From: an uncultured Clostridium sp.
Lineage (GTDB): Bacteria > Bacillota > Clostridia > TANB77 > CAG-508
Direction of reading: 5' to 3'
Assembly: GCA_930980855.1 (NCBI GenBank)
Contig: CAKNIZ010000003.1
Span: 32,338 to 96,337, forward strand
Length of the DNA stretch: 64,000 bases
Shown here: positions 4,772 to 46,084 of the stretch, in pieces
Position numbering within the stretch: position 1 is the first letter of the stretch
How the letters are laid out: the number at the start of each line of letters is the position of its first letter
Notes under the pieces: model-generated
Databases searched by the model: none
The model's input: the letters and a program-made list of their open reading frames with translations, nothing else
What the model was told of the DNA's origin: nothing
Position numbers and translations under genes: made by a program

Positions 4772-6772
4772 ATGAAAGGGAAAGAAATAGCGGAATTAAT
4801 ATCAACTGCATATGAGATGAAAAATCCAAATAATGCAATTGCGTTATTTGATCTTTTGTGTGACCAAATTAACTTTCCACATTTTGCAGAATATGAAAGA
4901 GGGTATACAGTAGGAAAAAATGGTAGAGCTATCGAAGATGATATTTCCGAATTTATAAAAGCAGTGGAGCAGAAGCTAAAAGGAACAGAAGAGTTAGAAG
5001 GATTCTATGAAAATTTAGAAGATGGTTTTCTTTGCTATATAGATGACGACATCATAAAGTTAAAAAAATTCTTTGAAGAAGGAATTTTTATGACAGGAAG
5101 TATTGTAAAATCCATAAAATCCGATGATATCAAAACAAAGATAATAAAATCAGCATTAAAAAATGGAGAAATCAATTATATTTATATAGATGTATTATCC
5201 TCTATAAATAATGATGAGTTAAAAGAAAAAGTTTTGGAACAAATAGAAGATCCAAGTTTTAGAATATATTTAATATGCTCTTTGAATTCTGACGAACTCA
5301 AAGAAAAGTATATGGAAAGAGTATCACCAGCAGATAGATTTAAAATAATAATATCACTAAAATCAGATGAGTTAAAATTAGAATATGCAAGAACAATCAA
5401 TAAAAATAAATTGCAAGCAGCAATATTAATGCATCTTAAAAGTGACGAACTTAAACTTGAAAACATGAATGAAATTGACATAGCTGTAGTGCAAACTATA
5501 AAATCAGATGATATAAAAATAAAGTGGCTATTAGATAATAGAGAAAAACTTTCAGAAGAAGAAGTATTTAGAATATTGTTTTCTCTTAAAAATGACAATA
5601 TAAAGTTACAAAATATAGATTTACTAGAAGATAGAAACAGTAAAATAGAATTGCTAAATAGAGCTAAAAGACCGGACCTAAAGTTATTAATGCATACGTG
5701 CAACAAATTGGGTATTAATATATTTGATGAATTAATTAATTCAAACAATGGAATTTATCCAGAAAATTATAATAGAAAATGGCAAAAAATAGGAATACCT
5801 CAAGATATGTCTTTTGGAATTGAAATAGAAGCTGCTTCAGAATATGCGTTTTTATATACACAATTTCCTCATATATGTAAAAGATGGGATATGACTAATG
5901 AACGCGTAAATAGAAAGTATTTGGAAGAAGAAAATATTTATATTATAGAAGCAAGTTCTCCAATTCTTTCAGATTGCAATGAGGATATCCAAGATATTTA
6001 TAGAGTATGTACATTATTAAAAAGTGGCGGACTTGAAGTTGAAGATAATTGTGGAGGACATGTTCATATTGGCGCAAATTACTTAACTACAAAAGAATCA
6101 TATCAAAGACTTATAGAACTATGGTGTAACTGTGAAAAAATAATTTTTGAAATTTGTGATGAACCATATAGTGTAAAAAGATTTACTTATGATGATTATG
6201 CAACTCCAATATCAGGTATATTAAAAGAAGGGAAAATAGAGGATGAACAAAACCTGAATAAAGATGAATTTATTGCCCAATTACAAAGTGTCCAAGGAGA
6301 CAGATATAAATCAATAAACTTTGCAAATGTAGGCAAAAAAGCTTCTACTATAGAATTTAGAATACCAAATGGTAGTCTTAATCCAAATGTATGGATTGAA
6401 AATATAAAATTATTTGGCAGAATGATGAAAATAGCAGAGGAGTTAGGAAAATTAGATAATAGGGAAACGAAAGAATATACAAGAGAAGAAAGAAGAAAAC
6501 TATGGCTTGCGACTATGCTTACAAATGCAAATGTACCAGAAGAAGATAAGGCAAAATTTTTAATTAATTTATTATTTGATGAAGAAGAATATAAACAAAT
6601 ATATTTTGAAAGATATAACACAAATAAAGGACAATTTAAAAATGAAAATGATAAATTTTCAATTATAGATTTTAAAAATTTATATAGAGAAATGAACTAT
6701 ATACAAAAAAACAAAGAAAGAAGAGGTAGAGAAAATGGAACAAAGGATGAGGATAGCTTTGACAGAGGTTAA
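4772..6772 (+). CDS. Repeat-rich protein with C-terminal amidoligase (GS-like carboxylate-amine ligase, Amidoligase_2-type) domain
   Basis: The ATG at 4772 follows GGAGG. Residues about 115-300 carry some 8-9 tandem units of about 25 aa containing (I/L)KSD(D/E)(I/L)K. The C-terminal part has the motifs GIEIEA, EASSPIL, CGGHVHIG and IEFRIPNG, which I recognise as the amidoligase pattern. Confidence 0.6.
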   Translation: MKGKEIAELISTAYEMKNPNNAIALFDLLCDQINFPHFAEYERGYTVGKNGRAIEDDISEFIKAVEQKLKGTEELEGFYENLEDGFLCYIDDDIIKLKKFFEEGIFMTGSIVKSIKSDDIKTKIIKSALKNGEINYIYIDVLSSINNDELKEKVLEQIEDPSFRIYLICSLNSDELKEKYMERVSPADRFKIIISLKSDELKLEYARTINKNKLQAAILMHLKSDELKLENMNEIDIAVVQTIKSDDIKIKWLLDNREKLSEEEVFRILFSLKNDNIKLQNIDLLEDRNSKIELLNRAKRPDLKLLMHTCNKLGINIFDELINSNNGIYPENYNRKWQKIGIPQDMSFGIEIEAASEYAFLYTQFPHICKRWDMTNERVNRKYLEEENIYIIEASSPILSDCNEDIQDIYRVCTLLKSGGLEVEDNCGGHVHIGANYLTTKESYQRLIELWCNCEKIIFEICDEPYSVKRFTYDDYATPISGILKEGKIEDEQNLNKDEFIAQLQSVQGDRYKSINFANVGKKASTIEFRIPNGSLNPNVWIENIKLFGRMMKIAEELGKLDNRETKEYTREERRKLWLATMLTNANVPEEDKAKFLINLLFDEEEYKQIYFERYNTNKGQFKNENDKFSIIDFKNLYREMNYIQKNKERRGRENGTKDEDSFDRG

Positions 6773-17036: not shown

Positions 17037-18752
17037 TTAATTTTTAAATTTTTTACAAGCTTTTGCAATTTTCTTCATTTCCTCATTTCTTTTAATTTTT
17101 TGAGTAGTTGTTTTTATAAGAGGATCTGAAGAAATTATAATTTGTCTAATATACTTATAAGCTGGCATTTGTTTATTAATTTTTGTTTTTATATCATTCC
17201 AAATTTTATCACAATATTCATTGTCTTTTATACCTGGAAAAGCTTTCTTTAATTCTTCTTCGTCATATATAATTTTAGCACAAAGTGTTACATCTGTATT
17301 TCTATCTAATTTAGAATTATCTAGTAAGCCAAATACCATACTTTCTGTCACATATGGAAGTTTATTAATTAATATTTCTAATTCTTCTGGAAAAATTTTT
17401 TTACCATTTTTTAAAACTATCATATCTTTTTTTCTGCCAGTTACAAAAAGAAATCCATCATTATCTATATATCCTAAGTCTCCCGTATAGAAATATCCAT
17501 CTTTTAGTACTTCATTAGTTGCTTCTTCATTTTTATAATATCCAAGCATTATTGCTGGAGTTTTTGTAATAATTTCACCAATTCCATTTGCATCTGGATT
17601 ATCTATTTTAATTTCAATTGTTGGAAGCGGGAAGCCAACTGAACCAGTTTTCTTATGAAAACTATTTTCACCTGCAATAACAGGAGCTGTTTCAGTAAGG
17701 CCATATCCTTGATGAACATCAAAACCAAAATCATTGTAACCTTTTATGGTCTCCTTATCCATCGGAGCACCACCAGCTATTATTGTTCTTAACTTTCCAC
17801 CAAGCCCATCTATAATAGATTTAAATATTTTTCTCTTAGTTTCAATATTTGAATGTCTAAATAATACTCTCATAATATTTACAAGAACTGTTTTCTTTTG
17901 CTCTTTTATTGTTTTTAGTATTTTTTTATACATTATTTCAAGCATTAAAGGAACACATACAAATCCTGTTACTTGGTATTCAACTAAATTTTTTTGGATA
18001 TATTTTAAACCATCACAAATAGCTATTGTTATACCACAAGATGTTCCAAAAAGAAAAGTGGTTGTACTTTCAAATGTATGATGAAGTGGTAAAAAAGATA
18101 AAAATTTATCTTCTGTTGTTATTTCTATCATTTGGCTAAGTGCATATAAATCCATACAAATAGCATATTGTGAAAGCATAACCGCTTTTGCAATACTTGT
18201 TGTACCAGAAGTAAATAAAATAATACTCATTTCTTTATTATTAATTGAAATATCATTATATGATTTATGGTCTAATTTTTTGCCTTCTTTTAATAATTGT
18301 GAGTAAGATAAAATAGTGTCTTTTTCTTCTGATAAATCCATACATATTTTTATTTTACAATTAGATTTATTTACTGCATCTAAGTATTTTGAACTAAAAA
18401 TAATACTATCTGCTTCACTTCTTTTTAATAAATCTAATAATTCATTTTCAGGTAGAGATTTATCTAAGGGAACTACAACTAAACCAGCGGTAGTGATTGC
18501 TAAATAACTTACGCACCATTCATATCTATTATCTGCTATTAATGCAACTCTTTTACAATTTTGATTTAAAAGACTACATGCTAAATCTTCTATATCTTTT
18601 GCAAATTGCTTATACGTTACTTTTATATGTTCAGTAGAATCTGGAGATTCTTTGTATTCAAAAGCAATAAGGTCTTTATACTTGGCTTTGTATAAATTTA
18701 CCAACTCACGAAAGTCATTTAATTTTTGACCTTCATATAATTTATTGTTCAT
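17037..18752 (-). CDS. Long-chain acyl-CoA synthetase (AMP-binding family)
   Basis: AMP-binding motifs ILFTSGTTSIAKAVMLS, GYGLTETAP and YFYTGDLGYIDNDGFLFVTGRKKD. 571 aa. Confidence 0.85.
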   Translation of the reverse strand: MNNKLYEGQKLNDFRELVNLYKAKYKDLIAFEYKESPDSTEHIKVTYKQFAKDIEDLACSLLNQNCKRVALIADNRYEWCVSYLAITTAGLVVVPLDKSLPENELLDLLKRSEADSIIFSSKYLDAVNKSNCKIKICMDLSEEKDTILSYSQLLKEGKKLDHKSYNDISINNKEMSIILFTSGTTSIAKAVMLSQYAICMDLYALSQMIEITTEDKFLSFLPLHHTFESTTTFLFGTSCGITIAICDGLKYIQKNLVEYQVTGFVCVPLMLEIMYKKILKTIKEQKKTVLVNIMRVLFRHSNIETKRKIFKSIIDGLGGKLRTIIAGGAPMDKETIKGYNDFGFDVHQGYGLTETAPVIAGENSFHKKTGSVGFPLPTIEIKIDNPDANGIGEIITKTPAIMLGYYKNEEATNEVLKDGYFYTGDLGYIDNDGFLFVTGRKKDMIVLKNGKKIFPEELEILINKLPYVTESMVFGLLDNSKLDRNTDVTLCAKIIYDEEELKKAFPGIKDNEYCDKIWNDIKTKINKQMPAYKYIRQIIISSDPLIKTTTQKIKRNEEMKKIAKACKKFKN

Positions 18753-34276: not shown

Positions 34277-37048
34277 ATGAAATGTAAAAAATTATTATCA
34301 GTATTACTAATTGCATTAACATTGTTTGAAGTGTTTTCTTTTACAATGCCAGCAATAGTTAGTGCAGCAACAAACGCAACATTATCACACCCCAAAGTGC
34401 CAGATGTATGGTACACAAGACGTGGTGGTGGAAAGCCTTATATGTCAGCACAATATGAAACTTATACAATGAATGGAAAAGTCGTTTATTGTATTGAGCC
34501 GGGAATTGATATTGCAACAACAAGTTATTTAGGTTATGACGGTTTGCAATCATCTCCATATAGTGCAGAAATCAATAAGAAAATAGAACTTATTGGTCAT
34601 TATGGATACGATTATCCCGGACATCAAACATTAAGATATAGAATGGCTACACAAGCCCTTATATGGGAAACAACAGGAGGTCAAATTGTAGAGTTCTGGA
34701 CACAAGCCTCTGGACACGGTGATTATATCAATATAGACGCAGAGAAAAATGAAATAATGAGATTAGTAAATTCTCATTACAATAAACCTAGTTTTAATGG
34801 AACAAAACAAGAAGCAGTAATCGGGCAAGAATTTAAACTTACTGATTCAAATGGTGTATTAAGTGAGTATGAGGTTTATAGTTCTGATGGACTTTCTGTA
34901 AGAATTGATGGAAATGATATTTATATCACACCTCTTGAAGTAGGTGAACAAACATTAAATGTAGTAAGAAAACATTATGATAATTTTACAACTATTGTGT
35001 ATTTAGGAAATGGAGTAAACTCTCAAAAAATGGGATATTTTAGATTTTCTGATCCAGTAGTTGCTTCTGTTAAAGTTGATACAAAAGGTGGAGATGTAAC
35101 AGTAGAGAAGAAAGATAATGATACACAAACAAATGAGCCACAAGGTGTTGAAGCAACATTAGAGGGTGCAGTTTATGGTATTTATAATCTTAATGATGAA
35201 TTAGTTGAGAAAGTTACAACTAAGGCTGACGGAACAGTTACAAGTCCAATTTTGCCAGACATTGGAACATTTTATTTGCAAGAAATCAGTCCAAGTACAG
35301 GATATGAACTTGATACAAATAAATACTATTTTGAAATTACTACCGAAGATTTACACCCTGCAATAAGTGTGTATGAACAAATTATCAAAAGAGATGTGGA
35401 AATCAACAAGTATTATGCTAGTCCTGAAACAGGTATTTTAAAACCAGAAGTAAATATCGAATTTGGTATTTATGATAGTAAAGGAAATCACGTTACAACA
35501 GTTAAGACTGACGAACAAGGTTACTCAAAAGTTAATCTCGTTTATGGCACATATACTGTAAAACAACTTAATACAACAGATGGACACGAGAAAGTAAAAG
35601 ACTTTAAAATAGTTGTTAATGGAAACTCACCACAAACAATTAGATACGCTTTATCAAATGCCCCAATTACTGCAAAATTAAAACTTGTAAAAACAGATTC
35701 TGAATCAGGAAAAGTTATACCTTATGAAAATGTAACATTTAAAATCAAAAATCTTGATACAGGAGAATATGTATGTCAAAAAGTAACTTATCCAGATAAA
35801 GAAGAAATCTGTGAGTTCAAAACCGATGAAAACGGTGTGTTTATCACTCCTTATCCTTTAACAAGTGCCACTTATCAAATCGAGGAACTAACCAGTCCGT
35901 CTGGATACCTTTTAAATGAAGAAGGTATTGTATTTAGACTAGATGAGAACAGTACAATTATAGAAGATGATGAGTATGGAAAATATATTGAAGTTGAGTT
36001 TGCTAATGATAAGATAATGGGTGAAGTTGTAATTGAAAAGACAGGAGAAGCATTTACTGTTGAAGATGGAAAATACTCTTATGAAGAAATCAAATTGAGT
36101 GGAGTAGAATTTTCAATTTATGCAGATGAAGACATCATTACTCCAGACGGTGTTACTCATCATAAAAAGGGCGAGTTCATAAAATCTATTGAAACAGGAT
36201 CAGAGGGAACTGCCACATTTACTGACCTTTATTTAGGAAAATATTTAATCAAGGAAACCAAGACAGTAAATGACCACGTTATAGATACAACGGAACACAA
36301 AGTAGAATTAACTGAAATTGATAATAAAACTGCTGTTGTATCTGAAACATTAAAACTAAAAAATGAATTGAAAAAAGCAGAACTTGAATTCACTAAAACA
36401 GATTTAGTAAATGGAGAGCCAATTCCTAATACAATAATTGAAATTTATGTAGAAGATACAAATGAACTAATTTTCACAGGAGAAACTGATGAGAATGGTA
36501 AAATTATTATTACTGATTTAGTTGCAGGAAAAAAATACTATATTTTAGAAAAAGAAAGTGCAACAGGATATGTAATAACAGATGAAAAAGTCACTTTTGA
36601 AATTACAGAAGATGGCGAAGTAGTAAAAGCAGAAATGAAAAACAAACCTATTACTGGAACATTAGAATTTACAAAAGTAGATTTATCGACAGGAACACCA
36701 CTACCAGATACTTTAATCGAAATTTATAATGAACAAGATGAATTAGTATTTAGTGGTAGAACTGATGAAAACGGAAAAATTGTCATTGAAGAAATGAGAT
36801 ATGGACGTTACTATATTTTGGAAAAGGAGGCACCGGCAGGATACGTTCTTAATGAAGAAAGAATGTATTTTGAGATTAGAGAAGATGGTGAAATCGTAAA
36901 AGCGACAATGGAAAATGAAAAAATTGTTGTTGAAGTTCCTAATACAGGAATTAACGATTATCATTTAATTGAAATCTTTGGTGGCTTACTAATTATAAGT
37001 GGAATAGGAGTTGTTGTTTATGTTAAAAAAAGAAAAAAACAACAATAA
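34277..37048 (+). CDS. Cell-wall-anchored adhesin: thioester (TED) domain plus multiple CnaB/SpaA-type domains and a VPNTG sorting signal
   Basis: A signal peptide is present. The thioester motifs are VYCIEPG (about 34483) and TQALIWE (about 34650). Repeated CnaB-like units occur (e.g. LEFTKTDLVNGEPIPNTIIEIY..GYV twice, about 36373-36910). The C-terminus is VPNTG followed by a hydrophobic helix and KKRKK. Confidence 0.85.
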   Translation: MKCKKLLSVLLIALTLFEVFSFTMPAIVSAATNATLSHPKVPDVWYTRRGGGKPYMSAQYETYTMNGKVVYCIEPGIDIATTSYLGYDGLQSSPYSAEINKKIELIGHYGYDYPGHQTLRYRMATQALIWETTGGQIVEFWTQASGHGDYINIDAEKNEIMRLVNSHYNKPSFNGTKQEAVIGQEFKLTDSNGVLSEYEVYSSDGLSVRIDGNDIYITPLEVGEQTLNVVRKHYDNFTTIVYLGNGVNSQKMGYFRFSDPVVASVKVDTKGGDVTVEKKDNDTQTNEPQGVEATLEGAVYGIYNLNDELVEKVTTKADGTVTSPILPDIGTFYLQEISPSTGYELDTNKYYFEITTEDLHPAISVYEQIIKRDVEINKYYASPETGILKPEVNIEFGIYDSKGNHVTTVKTDEQGYSKVNLVYGTYTVKQLNTTDGHEKVKDFKIVVNGNSPQTIRYALSNAPITAKLKLVKTDSESGKVIPYENVTFKIKNLDTGEYVCQKVTYPDKEEICEFKTDENGVFITPYPLTSATYQIEELTSPSGYLLNEEGIVFRLDENSTIIEDDEYGKYIEVEFANDKIMGEVVIEKTGEAFTVEDGKYSYEEIKLSGVEFSIYADEDIITPDGVTHHKKGEFIKSIETGSEGTATFTDLYLGKYLIKETKTVNDHVIDTTEHKVELTEIDNKTAVVSETLKLKNELKKAELEFTKTDLVNGEPIPNTIIEIYVEDTNELIFTGETDENGKIIITDLVAGKKYYILEKESATGYVITDEKVTFEITEDGEVVKAEMKNKPITGTLEFTKVDLSTGTPLPDTLIEIYNEQDELVFSGRTDENGKIVIEEMRYGRYYILEKEAPAGYVLNEERMYFEIREDGEIVKATMENEKIVVEVPNTGINDYHLIEIFGGLLIISGIGVVVYVKKRKKQQ

Positions 37049-37670
37049 GAAAGGCAAAAAGAGTCAACTTTTAATAGTTGGCTCTTTGCTTATCTTAATT
37101 GGAGTTAGCGTAATTGGAATGAAAATATTTCTTGATATGAGAACAGATAATTTAGAAGATAAAGCACTTGTAGAATTTTATGAGGAACAAGAAAAAGTAG
37201 ATGAAGATTTACCTACTGAAACAGAAGAAACAGAAAGTAAAGATAATGAAGTGAAACCAACTAATTCATTAAATTATATTGCAGTTTTGAAAATACCAAG
37301 TATAAACCTTGAAAGAGGTTTAGTTGCAAAAGATAGTTACTACAATAATGTAAATCGAAATATCAAAATTCTTGACGAATCAGATATGCCAGATCAAGAA
37401 AATGGAAATGTAATTTTAGCAGCACATAGTGGAAATGGAAGAACTGCATTTTTTAGAAATCTTGATAAAATGCAAATAGATGATACAGTAAGCATTTTCT
37501 ATAATGGCTATGAATATAAGTACCGTATGATTAACACTTATGATATTGAGAAAACTGGTACTGCTGAAATAACAAGAAATGGACAAAAAAGCACATTGAC
37601 ACTTATTACTTGCAGACACAATACAAATAAACAAATTGTAATCATTTGCGAATTAGTTGAAAAAATATAA
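37020..37670 (+). CDS. Sortase
   Basis: A TM anchor, AAHSGNG (His), TLITCRH (catalytic Cys, about 37600). It overlaps the end of the adhesin gene. Confidence 0.88.
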   Translation: MLKKEKNNNKKGKKSQLLIVGSLLILIGVSVIGMKIFLDMRTDNLEDKALVEFYEEQEKVDEDLPTETEETESKDNEVKPTNSLNYIAVLKIPSINLERGLVAKDSYYNNVNRNIKILDESDMPDQENGNVILAAHSGNGRTAFFRNLDKMQIDDTVSIFYNGYEYKYRMINTYDIEKTGTAEITRNGQKSTLTLITCRHNTNKQIVIICELVEKI

Positions 37671-38479: not shown

Positions 38480-41400
38480 ATGGAGGTGATTATATTGGCT
38501 AGAAGAATTAGAGATATTACTGCTCTATATGGAGAAACATTGCAAGATTTAACTAAAAATCCAGAGGAATGGGTTTCTTTTATGGAATGTGCTGCAATGA
38601 ATTATAAATATTCTTTCTCCGATCAAGCACTTATTTATGCTCAAAAGCCAGAAACTATTGCTTGTGCTGAAATTGAAACGTGGAATAAAGCATTTAAAAG
38701 GTGGGTAAATAAAGGAGCAACTGGTATTGCTTTACTAACTGAAAAAAATGGATACCCATATATGAGATATGTTTTTGATGTATCAGATACGAATAGTAGA
38801 TTAGGTAAAAACTTTCTTCTTTGGACTGTTACAAAAGCATACGAAGAATATGTTATTGAAGTATTGGAAAATAGATATGGCGAGTTAGAGGATAAAAGTT
38901 CACTTGCAAATGCAATTATTTCATCAGCATATAATATGGTAGAAGATAATTTGCCCGATTATTTGGAAGATTTAAAACAATTTTCAAATAACAGTATATT
39001 AGGCTCACAAGACGATACTCATATAAAAGCAACTTATCAAAGTTTATTATCTAATAGTGTTGCTTTTATGATGATGAAAAGATGTGGGATTGATCCTAAT
39101 GAATACTTTAAAGCAGATGATTTTAAAGATATAAAAGAGTTCAATACTTACGATACAATAACAAGATTAGGTATTGCTACAAGTGATATATCAGAAATGG
39201 GTTTGCGTGAAATATATTCTACTATTAAAAATGTGCGAATAAATGAAATAGATAAAATTCGCACATTTGATAAAGAAAATCAAAAAGATTATGATATAAG
39301 TGATAACAGAAATATTGAAAGTGAAAGGAGCGAGGAATATGAAAGAAATAACTTACACAATGCAGGGAGATTACAGAATACCAGACCTAATGCTACCACA
39401 GAAAGAGAGAAAAGAGGTCAATGGGAAATACGCATTGATGAGGTTAAGATACCTAAAAGACCACAAGAAAGCATTATACACGACACTTCTAATGAAAGAC
39501 CAGTTGATGGAACACCTATCAGAGATACAGGAACAAGTAGAAACGAAAGTGGAACAATTAGTATCACAGATGATGAAACAAGAAAACGTGACGGAAGAAT
39601 TGAAACAACAAGACCAAATGAGATGGGTGGGCTTGATGAACAACTTGAAGATATCAGCAGAGGAGATAGCAACGAAAGAACTAATTTACAATTAGGTGTG
39701 TTTGATAAGGACAGTAGTAACTGTCCTTATGTTGTTATAGACGCAAAAGTAAATCAGATATTAAGTTTTGCTAATTTAAAAGTTACTAATGAAGAAATTA
39801 AAAATTATTTTGAAACTGAAAAAAATAGAACTAAAAGGGCAGAATATCTTAAAAATGCTTTTGATAATGTTTATGTTGGTATTTTTATTGAAACAGAATT
39901 ATATGGGTATAAAGCATTTGACAATGGACTTTTAATTTGGAAAGGAAATTTCTTATCAAGAGATACAGAAAGTTTTATAAGTTGGGAAGATTTGACTGAC
40001 CACTATAATTCAATGATATTGTTGCACCAATTATATGATCGAAAACAAAAGTTACCAACTGAAAAAGAACAATTATCATTATTAGACCTTAACGAGAAAC
40101 AAGAAAGACCAGAGTTAGAATTTTCACAAGAGTTTATAGATACTTTTTTTCAAGAACAAAACCCTGAAAGAAAGTTTTATATTTATAGACAATTACAAAG
40201 TAGTTTGTCTACAAATGAGAATATAACATTTTTAAAAAATCTCTATGGATTAAGTGGAAGTACCCATACAGTAAAAGGCTCTGGTGTTGGATTTGATAGT
40301 AGTAGCAAAGGTATTACTTTATATCGTGGATATGAAGCAGATGAAATAGAAATTTTATTGAAATGGAATAATATTGAAAAAAGACTAAAAGAACTAATCA
40401 AATTAGACCGTTATCTAAATCCAAAGGAAATGGAGTATTATCCGAAGTGGCTAGAAGAACACGAAAATAGTCAAAAAGAAGAATATGAAGATACTCTGGA
40501 ACAAGAAGAAAAAAATGATACTGAAATTATAGAAGAAAATGTAGATTATATAGAAGAATATGAGTATCATTTAGGAGATAAAGTCTATATTGGTGCAGAC
40601 GAATATGAGATTATTTCTTTTGATGATAATACAGTCAGACTATATGATTACCAATATCCATTGTTTAATCAAGAATTTTCAAGAGAAGAATTTGATAGGA
40701 AAGTTCAAGAAAATCCTGCAAATGACCATTTAAAAGTCAGAAAATTAAAACAAGAAGAACAAACATCTCCTAATGAATATGGAGAGTTTAATGATGAAGT
40801 TGATCTTGTTGAACACATCTTGCACCAACATAAGATATTTGATATAAAAGTGAATTTTAACTCTGATGAAGAAATCGTGGGTTATGATGATGAAAATGAG
40901 TGGGTAGGAAAAGAATTATATGATTTTCTATTTAATCAATTATTTGAATATAATGATGATGGAACTGTTAAATTAGTTGATAAAAATGATATAGAAAGAT
41001 TAAAAGAATATCAAAAGAAATACGAAGTTGCAGAAAAACAAAAAGAAGAACTAGATGATTTAATTGGAGAACATCTAACAATAGATAACAGAAAGTTTAT
41101 TGTAGATAGTATCAATAATGATAGAGTATCATTAAAAGATATTACTTTTCAAGGAACAACTGGTTTTCCAATATTTAGAGATGAAAGTATAGACTATGTA
41201 AAAGAATTACTGGCTGAAAAGGAAAAAGCAGAGTTTGTACCTGTTTTTGAGAAAAAGAAAAAATCAAGAATTACTACTTTTGATTTACACCCAGAAATTA
41301 AAAATGAAGATAGAAATAATTTTCATATTACTGATGATATGTTAGGAGTAGGAACAGACAGGGAAAAGTTTAATCGAAATATTGCTGCAATAAAAGTTTT

Positions 41401-44400
41401 GAAACTATGTGAAAAAGAAAATCGTTTTGCAACTCCTGAAGAACAAAAAGTGTTATCACAGTATGTTGGTTGGGGTGGATTACCACAAGCATTTGATGAT
41501 AAAAATAGTTCGTGGTCTAGTGAATATTTAGAATTAAAGAATTTATTAGATGAAGATGAATACAAATCAGCAATGGAATCTACTTTAACTGCTTTTTATA
41601 CACCACCTGTTGTTATTAGAACAATGTATAAAGCATTAGAGCAAATGGGTATGAAAACGGCAAATATCCTAGAGCCTGCGTGTGGAACTGGTAATTTTAT
41701 AGGAATGTTGCCAGATACTCTTAACGAATGTAAGTTATATGGTGTTGAACTCGATAAAATATCTGGTAAAATAGCACAACAATTATATCAAAAGAGTTCT
41801 ATTGCAGTACAAGGTTTTGAAAACACGGTACTTCCAGACTCTTTTTTTGATGGTTGTATTGGAAACGTACCTTTTGGAGATTTTAAATTATTAGATAAAA
41901 AGTATGATAAAAATAATTTTTTAATCCACGATTATTTCTTCGCAAAAGCCATAGATAAAGTCAGACCGGGTGGAGTAATTGCTTTTATTACGAGCAAAGG
42001 AACATTAGATAAAGAAAGCCCTGCTGTACGAAAATATATTGCTCAAAGAGCAGACCTTTTAGGGGCTATTCGTTTGCCAGATAATACTTTCAAAGCAAAT
42101 GCAGGAACAAAAGTAACATCAGATATTATATTCCTACAAAAAAGAGATTCTATTACAGATTTAGAGCCAGAATGGGTACATTTAGATACAAATGAAGATG
42201 GTATCAAAATGAATAAATATTTTATAGATCACCCAGAGATGATCTGTGGTAATATGGTAATGGAGTCAACACAATTTGGAATGGACTCTACTTGTAAAGC
42301 AAATGAAGATACTACACTTGAAGAACAATTAAATGACGCAATTCAAAATATACACGCCGAAATAAAAGAATATGAATTTGATGACATTGGAGAAGATGAA
42401 GAAGATTTATCTATTCCTGCAGATGTTAATGTTAGAAATTTCTCATACACGCTTGTAGATAACAAAATATATTACCGTGAAAATAGTAGAATGTATCCAC
42501 AAGAATTACCACTAACGACACAAAATAGAATAAAAGGCTTAATTGAAATTAGAGATTGCGTCAGAACTCTAATTGAACTACAAACAGAAGATTATCCAGA
42601 TGAAGAAATAAAACAAGAACAGAAAAAATTGAATACTTTGTATGATAATTTTATAAAGAAATATGGATTAATCAATAGCAGAGCAAATACCTCTGCTTTT
42701 TCTAATGATAATAGTTTTTATTTGTTATGCTCATTAGAAATATTAGATGAAAATAAAGAATTAAAAAATAAAGCAGATATGTTTACTAAAAGGACTATTA
42801 AGCCGAATATTCAAATAACAAAAGTCGATACTGCACAAGAAGCATTAGTTGTATCTATATCTGAAAAAGCAAGAGTTGACCTTGATTATATGCAACAGTT
42901 ATGTGGTATAGATATGGATAAGATGTTAGAAGATTTAGAGGGACAAATATTCAATGTTCCTATTTATGGTGATCCTAATGTATGGGTAACTGCCGATGAA
43001 TATTTAAGTGGTAATGTTCGTGAAAAATTAAAAATAGCAGAAGAATTTGCCAAAACTGATTCAAGGTTTGAAACAAATGTAAAACATCTAAAAGAAGTAC
43101 AGCCAAAAGATTTAGAAGCAAGCGAAATTGCCGTAAGATTAGGTGCAACGTGGCTTCCACCAGAAGATATAGAAGAATTTATATGGTATTTACTAACTCC
43201 TTCGTGGTATGTAAAAGATAATGTAAAAGTGCATTATATGGAAAGTACGGCACAATGGAGTATTGAAAATAAGAATTATGATAGAGGTAATGTAAAAGCA
43301 AATTCGACTTTTGGTACTCATAGAGTGAATGCTTATAAGATCATAGAAGAAACACTTAATTTAAAAGATGTTAGGGTATATGATTATACAATAGATGATG
43401 AGGGTAGAAGAATACCAGAATTAAATAAAAAGGAAACGGCTATTGCTCAAGCCAAGCAAGAACAAATTAAGACTGCTTTTGAAGAATGGATATGGACTGA
43501 TCCAGAACGTAGGCAAAGACTATGTAAAATGTATAATGAAAAATTTAACTCAATTCGACCACGAGAATATGATGGCTCACATATAAGGTTTGATGGAATG
43601 AATCCAGAAATAAAACTTCGTAAACATCAAATCAATGGAATTGCCAGAATACTTTATGGAGGGAACACCCTATTAGCACACGAAGTTGGAGCAGGGAAAA
43701 CATTTACAATGGTCGCTGCTGCAATGGAAGCAAAAAGATTAGGTCTATGCAACAAGAGTATGTTTGTTGTTCCTAATCATATAGTAGAGCAATTTAGTTC
43801 GGAGTTTTTGCAATTATATCCGTCTGCCAACATTCTCGTAACGACAAAGAAAGATTTTGAAACAGGAAACAGAAAAAAGTTTTGTTCAAGAATTGCAACA
43901 GGAGATTATGACGCAGTTATCATTTCACACAGTCAATTTGAAAAAATACCAATGTCAGTTGAAAGACAGACACAAATACTTCAAAAACAGATAGATGATA
44001 TTATGAGAAGTATTACCGATTTAAAAGAAAATCACGGAGAACGATTTACTATTAAACAACTAATGAAAACACAAAAAAGTTTGGAAACAAAATTAAAGAA
44101 ACTCAATGACACATCAAGAAAAGATGATGTTGTAACATTTGAGGAATTAGGAGTAGATAGAATATTTGTTGATGAGGCACATTATTATAAAAATCTTTTT
44201 CTTTATACTAAAATGAGAAATGTTGGAGGAATAGCACAAACGGAAGCACAAAAGTCTAGCGATTTATTTATGAAATGTCGTTATCTTGATGAACTAACTG
44301 GAGGAAAAGGAGTAACTTTTGCGACAGGAACACCAGTAAGTAACAGTATGGTAGAGTTATATACAATGCAAAGGTACTTACAGTACGCAGAACTTGAAAA

Positions 44401-46084
44401 AAGAAATCTCCAAAACTTTGACGCGTGGGCTTCAACTTTTGGAGAAACAGTTACCGCTATTGAATTAGCACCAGAGGGAACAGGTTACCGTGCCAAAACG
44501 AGGTTTGCCAAGTTTTATAATTTACCAGAACTACTGGCAATGTTTAAAGAGGTTGCAGATATTCAAACATCAGATATGCTTAATCTACCAGTACCAAAAG
44601 CAAACTATGAAAATGTTGTAGTAAAGCCAACAGAAATACAAAAAGAAATGGTTGCAGATTTAGCAGACCGTGCTGAAAGAGTAAGAAATAAAATGGTGGA
44701 TTCATCTATTGATAATATGCTTAAAATCACGAATGATGGTAGAAAACTAGCACTAGACCAACGTCTTATGAATGAAATATTACCAGATGATCCAAACAGT
44801 AAAGTGGCTACCTGTGCTAAAAATATTTATCGTATATGGGAAGAAAATAAAGACCAGCAACTTACTCAACTTGTATTCTGTGATTTATCTACTCCACATA
44901 ATGACGGTAAGTTTAATGTGTATGATGATTTAAAGAAAAAATTAGAAGAAATGGGTGTACCAGAAGATGAAGTACAATTTATTCACTATGCAAATACTGA
45001 CATTAGAAAGAAAGAATTATTTTCAAAAGTTCGTAAAGGAATAACGAGAGTTTTGATGGGCAGTACCCAAAAAATGGGGGCAGGAACTAACTGTCAAGAT
45101 AAACTTATTGCACTACACGATCTTGACTGTCCGTGGCGACCTAGCGACCTTATACAACGCTCTGGAAGAATAATAAGACAAGGAAACAATAATCCAGAAG
45201 TATTTATTTATCGTTATGTAACAGAGGGAACATTTGACGCATATCTTTATCAGTTAGTAGAAAATAAACAAAGATTTATATCACAAATAATGACATCTAA
45301 AACACCAGTAAGAAGTGCAGAAGATATTGATGAAACAGCATTATCTTATGCTGAAATTAAATCACTTGCTTCTGGAAATCCTTTAATAATTGAAAAAACA
45401 GAACTTGATACAGAGGTTGCTAAACTAAAACTTTTAAAACAAAGTCATTTAAGTCAAATCTATGCCATAGAAGATAGAATAATCAAATATTATCCTAATG
45501 AAATCAAAAGATTAGAAACAAAAATATCTAATTTAAAAGAGGACATAGAACTTTTAAAAAGCAATACAACAGGCGAAGAAATAAAGTTTGATAAGATGAT
45601 TATTCAAGGAAAAACTTATATAGATAGAATGGAAGCAGGAAATAAAATACTAGAAATATGCAAAGGAATGCCCAATCCAGAGCCAATAGAATTGGGAGAA
45701 TATAAAGGCTTTAAAACAAGTATAGAATTTGATAAAATAGGCAGAACTTTTAATTTTATTTTAAAAAATAAATTATCTTATGAAGTGGGATTAGGAACTG
45801 ATCAAAGTGGTAATATTACTCGTATTGATAATGAATTAAAAGATATAGAAGATACTTTAAAATCAACAATAGATTCATTAGAAGATACAAAAGTACAATT
45901 TGAAAATGCCAAAGAAGAAGCAAAAAGACCATTCAAACAAGAACAAGAGTTAAAGGAAAAATCTAAAAGACTTGATGAATTAAATATAAAATTAAATATG
46001 AATGATAAGGAAAAAGAAGTGATAGATTTTTCTGACAATGAAGAAGTAGAATGTCAAAACTATGAAAGGGCTTATGCAAGATAA
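38480..46084 (+). CDS. Giant polyvalent ICE protein: ArdC-N-like ssDNA-binding region, N6-adenine DNA methyltransferase, SNF2-family helicase
   Basis: An uninterrupted 2534-codon frame. The ArdC-N-like segment is YSFSDQALIYAQKPETIACAEIETWNKAFKRWVNKGATGIAL. Methyltransferase motif I is ILEPACGTGNFIG (about 41664) and motif IV is GNVPFG (about 41860). Helicase motifs are LLAHEVGAGKTF (about 43672), VDEAHYYKN (about 44169) and QRSGRIIRQGN (about 45155). The real start may be the TTG at 38495, 6 nt after GGAGGTG. Confidence 0.85.
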   Translation: MEVIILARRIRDITALYGETLQDLTKNPEEWVSFMECAAMNYKYSFSDQALIYAQKPETIACAEIETWNKAFKRWVNKGATGIALLTEKNGYPYMRYVFDVSDTNSRLGKNFLLWTVTKAYEEYVIEVLENRYGELEDKSSLANAIISSAYNMVEDNLPDYLEDLKQFSNNSILGSQDDTHIKATYQSLLSNSVAFMMMKRCGIDPNEYFKADDFKDIKEFNTYDTITRLGIATSDISEMGLREIYSTIKNVRINEIDKIRTFDKENQKDYDISDNRNIESERSEEYERNNLHNAGRLQNTRPNATTEREKRGQWEIRIDEVKIPKRPQESIIHDTSNERPVDGTPIRDTGTSRNESGTISITDDETRKRDGRIETTRPNEMGGLDEQLEDISRGDSNERTNLQLGVFDKDSSNCPYVVIDAKVNQILSFANLKVTNEEIKNYFETEKNRTKRAEYLKNAFDNVYVGIFIETELYGYKAFDNGLLIWKGNFLSRDTESFISWEDLTDHYNSMILLHQLYDRKQKLPTEKEQLSLLDLNEKQERPELEFSQEFIDTFFQEQNPERKFYIYRQLQSSLSTNENITFLKNLYGLSGSTHTVKGSGVGFDSSSKGITLYRGYEADEIEILLKWNNIEKRLKELIKLDRYLNPKEMEYYPKWLEEHENSQKEEYEDTLEQEEKNDTEIIEENVDYIEEYEYHLGDKVYIGADEYEIISFDDNTVRLYDYQYPLFNQEFSREEFDRKVQENPANDHLKVRKLKQEEQTSPNEYGEFNDEVDLVEHILHQHKIFDIKVNFNSDEEIVGYDDENEWVGKELYDFLFNQLFEYNDDGTVKLVDKNDIERLKEYQKKYEVAEKQKEELDDLIGEHLTIDNRKFIVDSINNDRVSLKDITFQGTTGFPIFRDESIDYVKELLAEKEKAEFVPVFEKKKKSRITTFDLHPEIKNEDRNNFHITDDMLGVGTDREKFNRNIAAIKVLKLCEKENRFATPEEQKVLSQYVGWGGLPQAFDDKNSSWSSEYLELKNLLDEDEYKSAMESTLTAFYTPPVVIRTMYKALEQMGMKTANILEPACGTGNFIGMLPDTLNECKLYGVELDKISGKIAQQLYQKSSIAVQGFENTVLPDSFFDGCIGNVPFGDFKLLDKKYDKNNFLIHDYFFAKAIDKVRPGGVIAFITSKGTLDKESPAVRKYIAQRADLLGAIRLPDNTFKANAGTKVTSDIIFLQKRDSITDLEPEWVHLDTNEDGIKMNKYFIDHPEMICGNMVMESTQFGMDSTCKANEDTTLEEQLNDAIQNIHAEIKEYEFDDIGEDEEDLSIPADVNVRNFSYTLVDNKIYYRENSRMYPQELPLTTQNRIKGLIEIRDCVRTLIELQTEDYPDEEIKQEQKKLNTLYDNFIKKYGLINSRANTSAFSNDNSFYLLCSLEILDENKELKNKADMFTKRTIKPNIQITKVDTAQEALVVSISEKARVDLDYMQQLCGIDMDKMLEDLEGQIFNVPIYGDPNVWVTADEYLSGNVREKLKIAEEFAKTDSRFETNVKHLKEVQPKDLEASEIAVRLGATWLPPEDIEEFIWYLLTPSWYVKDNVKVHYMESTAQWSIENKNYDRGNVKANSTFGTHRVNAYKIIEETLNLKDVRVYDYTIDDEGRRIPELNKKETAIAQAKQEQIKTAFEEWIWTDPERRQRLCKMYNEKFNSIRPREYDGSHIRFDGMNPEIKLRKHQINGIARILYGGNTLLAHEVGAGKTFTMVAAAMEAKRLGLCNKSMFVVPNHIVEQFSSEFLQLYPSANILVTTKKDFETGNRKKFCSRIATGDYDAVIISHSQFEKIPMSVERQTQILQKQIDDIMRSITDLKENHGERFTIKQLMKTQKSLETKLKKLNDTSRKDDVVTFEELGVDRIFVDEAHYYKNLFLYTKMRNVGGIAQTEAQKSSDLFMKCRYLDELTGGKGVTFATGTPVSNSMVELYTMQRYLQYAELEKRNLQNFDAWASTFGETVTAIELAPEGTGYRAKTRFAKFYNLPELLAMFKEVADIQTSDMLNLPVPKANYENVVVKPTEIQKEMVADLADRAERVRNKMVDSSIDNMLKITNDGRKLALDQRLMNEILPDDPNSKVATCAKNIYRIWEENKDQQLTQLVFCDLSTPHNDGKFNVYDDLKKKLEEMGVPEDEVQFIHYANTDIRKKELFSKVRKGITRVLMGSTQKMGAGTNCQDKLIALHDLDCPWRPSDLIQRSGRIIRQGNNNPEVFIYRYVTEGTFDAYLYQLVENKQRFISQIMTSKTPVRSAEDIDETALSYAEIKSLASGNPLIIEKTELDTEVAKLKLLKQSHLSQIYAIEDRIIKYYPNEIKRLETKISNLKEDIELLKSNTTGEEIKFDKMIIQGKTYIDRMEAGNKILEICKGMPNPEPIELGEYKGFKTSIEFDKIGRTFNFILKNKLSYEVGLGTDQSGNITRIDNELKDIEDTLKSTIDSLEDTKVQFENAKEEAKRPFKQEQELKEKSKRLDELNIKLNMNDKEKEVIDFSDNEEVECQNYERAYAR
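39339..39695 (+). CDS. tnpV: TnpV-like protein gene nested in the +1 frame of the giant ORF
   Basis: AAGGAG (39325-39330) lies 8 nt before the ATG at 39339, and the stop is TAG at 39693-39695. The 118-aa translation MKEITYTMQGDYRIPDLMLPQKE..GKYALMRLRYLKDHKKALYTTLLMKDQLMEHLSEIQ..DQMRWVGLMNNLKISAEEIATKELIYN matches, from memory, the full-length TnpV family of clostridial transposons/ICEs. Confidence 0.55.
   Translation: MKEITYTMQGDYRIPDLMLPQKERKEVNGKYALMRLRYLKDHKKALYTTLLMKDQLMEHLSEIQEQVETKVEQLVSQMMKQENVTEELKQQDQMRWVGLMNNLKISAEEIATKELIYN

Follow-up and report, generated by a model that had tools for sequence, protein, structure and literature searches.

How can one stretch of bacterial DNA hold, on a single strand, both a complete small gene and the interior of a very large one? 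The question is raised by a locus in a 64,000-nucleotide stretch of DNA from an uncultured Clostridium sp. (assembly GCA_930980855.1, contig CAKNIZ010000003.1, positions 32,338 to 96,337 of the forward strand), referred to here as the window and used for all coordinates given without a locus name. The window is part of a conjugative element, with genes for a tyrosine integrase, a relaxase, a coupling protein, a VirB4-like ATPase and a DUF3991-Toprim protein. Within it, a giant open reading frame (ORF) for a helicase-containing protein encloses, out of frame, an ORF resembling tnpV, a gene known from clostridial transposons. A first-pass annotation of the letters alone had noted this arrangement and offered four explanations: an overprinted gene, an internally initiated separate product, a tnpV gene swallowed by the fusion of two ORFs, or one protein family that is partly an annotation artefact of the other. 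Our analysis favors, with a probability of about 0.85, an overlap encoding two polypeptides from the same strand, in which tnpV is separately initiated and the giant gene reads through it as a tether between domains.

A tnpV gene nested in a giant helicase gene

The giant host ORF occupies positions 38480-46084 of the plus strand (2534 amino acids), and the ORF list bears out the earlier observation that it continues without a break across the overlap. One nucleotide later, in the +1 phase relative to the giant ORF, lies a second plus-strand ORF of 118 codons plus a TAG stop (357 nt), which runs from the ATG at 39339 to the TAG at 39693-39695 and spans host codons 287-405. Both the sequence and the ORF list confirm this ORF as it was first described, and the AAGGAG noted 8 nt before its ATG is present at 39325-39330. 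The hexamer is part of a Shine-Dalgarno (SD) block, GAAAGGAG, at 39323-39330 (+), the end of which lies 8 nt before the tnpV ATG.

The product of the nested ORF had been judged TnpV-like from end to end, and a profile search agrees. The 118-residue protein matches Pfam TnpV (PF14198) with an E-value of 2.8e-38 and a score of 130.8 bits (cut-off 27), and residues 5-116 align with profile positions 1-111 of 111, the full length of the model. Both its size (118 residues in a family of ~110-125) and its location on an integrative and conjugative element (ICE) fit the family. AlphaFold models the protein as an N-terminal beta-hairpin followed by a helical bundle, with a predicted local distance difference test score (pLDDT) of 86.5. 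Read in the host frame, the same DNA is predicted to be disordered. The whole overlap is contained in a stretch of the host protein rich in R, G, E, D and S (residues 259-419, positions 39254-39736, +), for which the pLDDT is 22-40. This inter-domain tether follows an N-terminal module (residues 1-258, positions 38480-39253, +) and precedes a second small module, a weak methyltransferase-like region and the helicase.

The two readings of the overlap can be compared directly. The host reading includes GQWEIR and PNEMGGLDEQLEDISR, and the TnpV reading includes YALMR and WVGLMNNLK. Among homologues, 20 columns of the host-frame tether are conserved at a level of at least 60%, compared with 52 in TnpV. 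The few conserved host-frame columns (..IR.., ..G..DEQ..) coincide in position with the TnpV motifs GKY and WV..MNN, so that the earlier claim that the linker motifs of such giant proteins are TnpV motifs read out of phase proves correct in substance.

The overlap also has an unusual composition. Its GC content is 0.37-0.39, compared with ~0.27 in the flanks, its AT skew is ~0.45, and a recount of the 300 nt from 39361 to 39660 gives the same 51 T that had been counted by hand. Two minus-strand ORFs, at 39371-39643 and 39418-39672, are present in the ORF list as reported. The corresponding frames are open in just 0-25% of homologous loci, and we reject these ORFs as further genes because they are not conserved; they are a by-product of the depletion of T on the plus strand.

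Recurrence of the nested arrangement

In order to sample homologous loci in a manner blind to TnpV, an alignment of the N-terminal module alone was scanned over one genome per bacterial species. Relatives of the module were found at no fewer than 596 genome loci, the best 80 of which were analysed together with a Streptococcus suis plasmid (L001), a Subdoligranulum replicon (L002) and the window. In all 83 loci, 76 of which are unique, a TnpV-like ORF follows the N-terminal module in the +1 phase and inside the host ORF. The host ORF ends within the retrieved DNA in 53 of the 76 unique loci, and these completed ORFs are 1044-3261 codons long (median 2587). When the N-terminal module was used to scan IMG/VR, tnpV was nested in 51 of the 51 loci with a full module in a long ORF. 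A third scan, with a TnpV alignment, found nested copies in 63 of 80 metagenome loci and 18 of 80 IMG/VR loci, the remainder being free-standing. Altogether there are more than 200 nested loci from many genera, with a nested gene of 113-124 codons. These three differently selected samples substantiate the suggestion that the dual-frame arrangement is widespread, and among the homologous giant genes we found neither a TnpV frame full of stops nor an interrupted host frame.

One example is the S. suis locus L001 (NZ_CP135064, 8133-15401), at which a gene annotated as a 2422-residue DEAD/DEAH helicase also contains tnpV, preceded by AGAGGAGG-N8-ATG and matching Pfam TnpV at 54 bits. Nested loci were also seen in three bins outside Bacillota, namely a Muribaculaceae metagenome-assembled genome (L020), an Alistipes communis bin (L075) and a Flexilinea bin (L079), which may reflect either binning contamination or real transfer of ICEs between phyla. 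Twelve IMG/VR loci (L208, L212, L214, L216, L217, L219, L220, L223, L227, L231, L232 and L243) match only TnpV residues ~29-36 to 118, and seven of these (L212, L214, L217, L219, L223, L232 and L243) end a few nucleotides from the end of the provirus or contig.

Selection on the two frames

We estimated how many stop codons the host frame should contain by keeping the TnpV protein fixed and redrawing synonymous codons at the frequencies with which the same giant gene uses them. For the window, ~8.3 host-frame stops are expected, and the host frame was open in none of 300 resamplings. Across loci, 8.0 stops are expected per locus, the probability of an open host frame is ~0.006 per locus, and no stop was observed in 76 of 76 unique loci. 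The third frame over the overlap contains ~17 stops per locus, as expected. The host frame is free of stops because T is depleted at the third codon positions of tnpV, which are the first positions of the host codons; the T fraction at these sites (T3) is 0.10, compared with 0.31 over the remainder of the giant gene.

The pattern of divergence shows which of the two proteins is conserved. Pairwise divergence at TnpV codon positions 1, 2 and 3 is 0.41, 0.31 and 0.54, as is usual for a coding gene and similar in order to the values for the N-terminal module in its own frame (0.46, 0.39 and 0.62). The least variable position within the overlap is therefore the third position of the host codon, the opposite of what coding in the host frame alone would produce. 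In 31 phylogenetically independent close pairs, in which only isolated substitutions were classified, 307 substitutions are silent in TnpV and change the host protein and 36 change TnpV and are silent in the host, compared with an expected ratio of 46:54 (p=4e-64). Per-site rates are 0.056 for changes that are silent in TnpV only (SN), 0.0057 for those silent in the host only (NS), 0.0056 for those that alter both proteins (NN) and 0.084 for those that alter neither (SS). The ratio of nonsynonymous to synonymous rates (omega) is ~0.07-0.10 for TnpV and ~0.67-0.98 for the host frame. Purifying selection on TnpV is strong, and the host frame is selected to stay open while its amino acid sequence is nearly neutral. 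The frame-specific analysis that the first-pass annotation had proposed thus finds a different form of selection in each frame. By its sequence features, the nested arrangement fits same-strand overlapping genes: both frames are open beyond chance, both are selected and the nested gene has its own translation signals.

Probable translation of the nested gene

The signals for starting TnpV are conserved along with its sequence. An SD-like core is found at -16 to -5 in 67 of 76 loci, compared with 9.5% of background ATGs in the same genes, and the start codon is ATG in 74 of 76. The exact GAAAGGAG occurs in 54 of the 83 loci, the spacing to the ATG is most often 8 nt (56 loci), and the tnpV stop is also conserved across loci. 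In an alignment of 26 diverse loci, GAAAGGAG-N8-ATG is the sole conserved block upstream of the gene, and RNAalifold predicted no base pairs around the tnpV start in these same loci. In the host frame, the block reads Glu-Arg-Ser. The arginine, R283 (codon AGG, 39326-39328), is the one residue that never varies in the C-terminal part of the alignment of N-terminal modules, a constancy attributable to AGG being the core of the SD sequence and not to constraint on the protein.

Internal initiation, one of the possibilities raised by the first-pass annotation, is the only mechanism that fits all loci and is most likely how TnpV would be made, as judged from the SD sequence, the start codon and the occurrence of a TnpV-frame stop directly before the ATG in 4 of 76 loci. 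A promoter-like sequence (TTGATA-17-TATGAT, 10 of 12 consensus positions) lies at 39267-39295 (+), 44 nt before the ATG. Sites of this kind number 12, compared with 13.7 in shuffled sequence, and an internal promoter for tnpV was rejected on these grounds.

A proposed reading: two proteins from one sequence

Taken together, these results argue for the following arrangement. TnpV would be translated on its own from GAAAGGAG-N8-ATG within the mRNA of the giant gene, and the giant gene would read the same DNA as a disordered tether that joins its N-terminal module to the methylase/helicase body. The sequence of the tether would be nearly free to drift, provided that stop codons are strictly excluded.

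Several points weigh against this interpretation. Translation from 39339 and the existence of a full-length giant protein are both deduced wholly from the evolution of the sequence. The omega of the host frame rests on 25 doubly synonymous observations, and host-frame identity between divergent loci is 0.266, compared with 0.224 when synonymous sites are randomised; given how few doubly synonymous sites there are, the host frame may be under weak amino acid constraint. The loci are not fully independent phylogenetically, and many come from metagenome bins with possibly unreliable taxonomy. A phmmer search of TnpV against PDB sequences and Foldseek searches of its model against PDB and BFVD gave no significant match, and the Xis-like role published for TnpV is a postulate (PMC3158075). 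Finally, a midpoint-rooted neighbor-joining tree of 198 TnpV sequences, which is poorly resolved, places the nested state at its root and requires at least nine switches between nested and free.

Origin of the overlap and free-standing tnpV

The nested tnpV exactly fills the gap between two folded host modules, the second of which begins just past the overlap (residues ~420-515, positions 39737-40024, +), and it retains its own SD sequence, start and stop. This arrangement could have arisen if a gene for the N-terminal module fused to a methylase/helicase gene farther downstream by reading through a tnpV that lay between them in another frame. Of the origins proposed earlier, the swallowing of tnpV by such a fusion fits best, and we infer it from the present-day sequences. 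The proposal of a genuine overprinted gene holds insofar as there are two overlapping coding frames, but with its polarity reversed. The host frame is disordered and nearly neutral, and TnpV is folded and constrained; by the usual criteria for overprinting, it is therefore the host tether that is the younger frame.

Much of what bears on this history comes from tnpV genes outside giant ORFs. Free-standing copies are found on Salmonella IncHI2 plasmids, in Campylobacter, on streptococcal plasmids and on many IMG/VR contigs. They contain 1-22 stops in the phase equivalent to the host frame, and their T3 is 0.13-0.40. Since free tnpV has host-phase stops, TnpV is not an annotation artefact of the giant linker, and the strong purifying selection on TnpV likewise speaks against that explanation. 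TnpV is thus a family of mobile-element proteins in its own right. The gene immediately upstream of free tnpV encodes a large serine recombinase in seven of 10 cases, a Mob_Pre relaxase in two and a coupling protein in one, and most free copies checked start 2-68 nt after a large serine recombinase gene. In one recurrent form (L123, L127, L131, L137, L139, L152, L161, L176 and similar loci), tnpV lies 26 nt after a gene for a 626-residue serine recombinase. Some free copies, including the L123 group and similar ones, have a T3 of 0.09-0.15 and merely two to four host-phase stops, as if they had recently been un-nested.

The TnpV proteins of Tn4451, Tn4453 and related transposons and integrative and mobilizable elements (IMEs) share with the nested ones the PF14198 domain, length, start and the motifs GDY..P, GKY, WVGLMNN and AEE..ELIY. 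Unlike nested tnpV, the Tn4451-type copies are non-overlapping, have host-phase stops and a normal T3, and most often lie 2-68 nt after a large serine recombinase gene. No serine recombinase adjoins tnpV in the ICE of the window, and the position directly 3' of TnpX that typifies Tn4451 is not seen there.

The polarity of events may instead have been the reverse, with TnpV born by overprinting in the linker of the giant gene and later escaping, repeatedly, to give the free-standing tnpV of Tn4451-like elements. Dual coding today would be the same, and only the history would differ. The nested root and the switches in the tree described above fit such a history, as do the free copies with low T3 and few host-phase stops and the rare stand-alone genes for the N-terminal module (L292, L297) that have no adjoining tnpV. 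The tree, however, was built from 118 residues and is weakly resolved. Moreover, TnpV is compact, well folded, of ordinary composition and constrained, whereas the host frame is disordered and nearly neutral, and TnpV proteins form a very large family found in many other genetic settings. We therefore consider a birth of TnpV within the linker unlikely, and prefer fusion across a pre-existing tnpV.

A hairpin after tnpV

A terminator-like hairpin with an 11-bp perfect stem and a T-rich tail lies at 39705-39730 (+), inside the host ORF; its status is uncertain. It begins 10 nt after the tnpV stop and has a minimum free energy of -20.4 kcal/mol (z=-6.4 relative to other 55-nt windows of the giant gene). 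Terminator-like sites occur no more than 80 nt after the tnpV stop in 17 of 75 loci, whereas 1.6% would be expected on the basis of the remaining parts of the giant ORFs. Apart from the window, the loci are L002, L003, L008, L013, L022, L034, L036, L038, L040, L042, L045, L047, L049, L067, L073 and L082; in these, the hairpin is 12-59 nt after the stop, and stem sequences vary between lineages. Within the window's own clade there is no consensus hairpin, most close relatives lacking it. The hairpin may be due in part to the host motif K/E-D...P-Y/F-V/F, and it could represent either the remains of an earlier tnpV cistron or an attenuator inside the giant gene.

A further possibility is that the overlap is more than a chance leftover of fusion and is itself a selected expression device, a gene within a gene that has its own start, stop and, in many lineages, a terminator-like hairpin 10-60 nt downstream, with TnpV as a dedicated partner or regulator and free tnpV genes as repeated escapes. 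Transcripts ending at the hairpin would yield TnpV alone, because the host frame on such a transcript lacks a stop and its product would be degraded, and transcripts that read through would also yield the giant protein. TnpV would then partner or regulate the giant protein and, more broadly, the DNA-processing enzymes of mobile elements. We consider such a device unlikely.

Alternative routes to the two products

Rather than by internal initiation, TnpV might be made as a fusion to the N-terminal module through programmed +1 frameshifting near 39330. SD-like sequences are known to stimulate frameshifting, as in prfB and dnaX. In addition, public metagenomic protein sets include chimeras that start in the host frame and continue in that of TnpV (P0004, P0007, P0028, P0030, P0183 and P0214). 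Their points of switching vary, however, and resemble sporadic indels or assembly errors. A stop in the TnpV frame occurs no more than 10 codons upstream of the ATG in 20 of 76 loci, leaving no room for a shift site, so that frameshifting from the host frame is not a general route. The ATG in 74 of 76 loci keeps a fixed spacing of 8 nt from the SD sequence, free-standing homologues begin at the same methionine, and the alignment upstream of tnpV holds no conserved shift site, nor anything else conserved beyond the SD sequence and the ATG. We regard frameshifting as very improbable. The chimeras themselves switch frame within or just before the overlap and are probably the result of indels or assembly errors. 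Long TnpV-containing proteins were also considered as natural in-frame fusions and rejected, as they are heterogeneous chimeras with an adhesin, a recombinase C-terminus or a frame-shifted N-terminal module.

It is equally hard to credit that the giant ORF is not translated through the overlap at all, the N-terminal module and the methylase/helicase being made separately and the open frame having some other cause. Such an arrangement would account for the terminator-like hairpin that closely follows tnpV in the window and in roughly one in four loci, for database proteins that stop soon after the linker (P0014, P0020 and P0022) and for annotations that begin the helicase gene downstream (L086). 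A separate N-terminal protein, however, would simply carry a stop codon, and host-frame stops are entirely absent from more than 200 loci, each of which should have about eight, an absence with no explanation but selection for read-through. The 53 completed host ORFs of 1044-3261 codons are, for the most part, uninterrupted for more than 2000. Dual coding with read-through of the giant gene thus remains our preferred reading. That the TnpV ORF is a non-functional shadow or relic, or an artefact of a compensated double frameshift or misassembly in the window, has next to no likelihood: T-poor, low-complexity sequence does leave several frames open, including the two minus-strand ORFs, but these are not conserved, whereas TnpV matches Pfam over its full length, keeps its SD sequence, start and stop in hundreds of independent assemblies and is under purifying selection specific to its frame, and codon-position divergence, stop resampling and substitution classes already refute the idea.

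Comparison with other overlapping genes

A close bacterial parallel is comS, which lies out of frame within srfA (srfAB) of Bacillus subtilis. It has 46 codons, is found in few Bacillus species and is a young overprinted frame. As with tnpV, a giant multidomain gene encloses a small one that is read from the same strand, has a ribosome-binding site of its own and specifies a separate protein. Unlike comS, nested tnpV has 113-124 codons, belongs to a very large Pfam family and is found at more than 200 loci in many genera; moreover, tnpV is the older, more constrained frame, and it is the frame of the giant gene that is nearly neutral. In hepatitis B virus, whose genome is under extreme size constraint, the "spacer" of the polymerase overlaps preS of the surface gene. 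There, too, a disordered tether between enzyme domains shares its nucleotides with a functional protein and tolerates nearly any open sequence, whereas the element described here is a bacterial conjugative element tens of kilobases long, and the gene families are unrelated. Same-strand nested genes also occur in the tiny genome of phiX174 (B in A, E in D). To our knowledge, long same-strand, fully nested bacterial genes with solid evolutionary support are very rare, most claims being short or lineage-specific. In Escherichia coli, gndA is likewise nested fully, out of frame and on the same strand in gnd (PMC11230408). Unlike tnpV, which is long, ancient and under frame-specific selection in hundreds of lineages, the E. 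coli cases have fewer than 50 codons and are narrowly distributed.

The giant protein itself resembles the polyvalent proteins of conjugative elements and phages (Iyer et al. 2017, PMC5512222) in being a giant multidomain ICE protein with an SNF2 helicase, along with a weak methylase-like region, comparable to the "snf2" genes of streptococcal ICEs. The 2017 description makes no mention of TnpV, overlapping frames or linkers. Full-text searches of the literature on TnpV, on bacterial overlapping genes, on SNF2 genes and on polyvalent proteins gave no account of tnpV nested in a giant gene, and the papers examined report no expression data for nested copies. Same-strand nested dual coding is a known phenomenon, and the tnpV case is an unusually strong new instance of it. 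It also points to a less familiar route to overlap, in which a large gene seems to fuse its parts across a small gene and use it as a sequence-indifferent tether, the sole price being the purging of stop codons.

Such loci are a problem for annotation, as pipelines retain just one of the two genes. RefSeq annotates the giant gene of the S. suis locus L001 (NZ_CP135064) and omits tnpV. At a Monoglobus locus (L086, NZ_OY725736, 2160-6350), tnpV is annotated and an "SNF2-related protein" is begun at 5271, though the same frame is open from 2160, so that the helicase start is placed ~1000 codons too late. At loci annotated with a "TnpV protein", the giant gene either goes unannotated or begins ~1000 codons downstream in the same open frame. 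A Cohnella locus (L088, NZ_CP051681, 2112-6335) is among those annotated inconsistently at the overlap.

Possible role of TnpV

Among representative protein clusters, 11,285 match the TnpV profile, and no NCBIfam model matches the nested TnpV. A study of Faecalibacterium treats PF14198 as a domain of unknown function that is possibly involved in transfer (PMC12084326). TnpV is regularly found in the company of large serine recombinases, relaxases, coupling proteins and the giant polyvalent protein, and this constant company suggests an accessory role in the processing or establishment of mobile-element DNA. Through nesting, TnpV is linked to conjugative-element genes of the polyvalent "snf2" kind, and this link offers a concrete experimental handle on its function.

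A different connection between TnpV and these genes is found in S. suis, in which TnpV-carrying IMEs are reported to insert into the "snf2" genes of ICEs and to be flanked by the 11-bp repeat TTTTGCGGACA (PMC9815147). We considered whether nested tnpV is the attachment site of such IMEs and rejected this, as no locus has TTTTGCGGACA within the overlap or close to it. The repeat does occur elsewhere in the giant ORF at some loci, such as at 17490-17500 in L072, near the 3' end of an ORF that ends at 17527, and at 15874-15884 in L067.

Domains of the giant protein and neighboring genes

The helicase core of the giant protein (residues 1711-2235, positions 43610-45184, +) consists of SNF2/ResIII and Helicase_C domains, with Pfam E-values of 9.9e-12 for SNF2-rel_dom, 3.6e-8 for ResIII and 9.5e-6 for Helicase_C, along with partial matches to NCBIfam helicase models. 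With an SNF2-family helicase core, several domains, a length above 2000 residues and a place on a conjugative element, the giant protein fits the polyvalent, SNF2-type giants, and it is homologous to the product of the S. suis plasmid gene. Methyltransferase models score below their cut-offs (Methyltransf_25, 19.1 bits, cut-off 27; DUF6094, 16.7 bits, cut-off 22.8). The second module has a pLDDT of 65-83 over residues ~421-490 and 60-72 from there to residue ~515, with mixed helix and strand, and its motif ..PYVV.D.KINQIL.. is conserved in homologues.

The N-terminal module is modeled with a pLDDT mostly of 73-93, with low-confidence stretches at residues 71-80 and 89-115. Residues 1-286 gave no Pfam match even at E-values up to 5, a profile of the module found no match among PDB sequences, and a Foldseek search of PDB with a 560-residue host model returned nothing. 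A suspected resemblance to ArdC-N-type single-stranded-DNA-binding domains therefore found no counterpart in the Pfam, PDB or Foldseek searches. The stand-alone genes for this module (254-285 residues) lie at 874-1638 in L292 and at 3932-4789 in L297, and have neither tnpV nor a giant gene. In many phage-contig proteins of ~120-160 residues (L301-L327), the similarity is confined to the central core of the module, profile positions 38-103. In the window, the giant gene is closely preceded, at 34277-37670, by a gene for a 923-residue surface protein that combines a thioester domain with six repeats of the SpaA type and is followed by a sortase gene.

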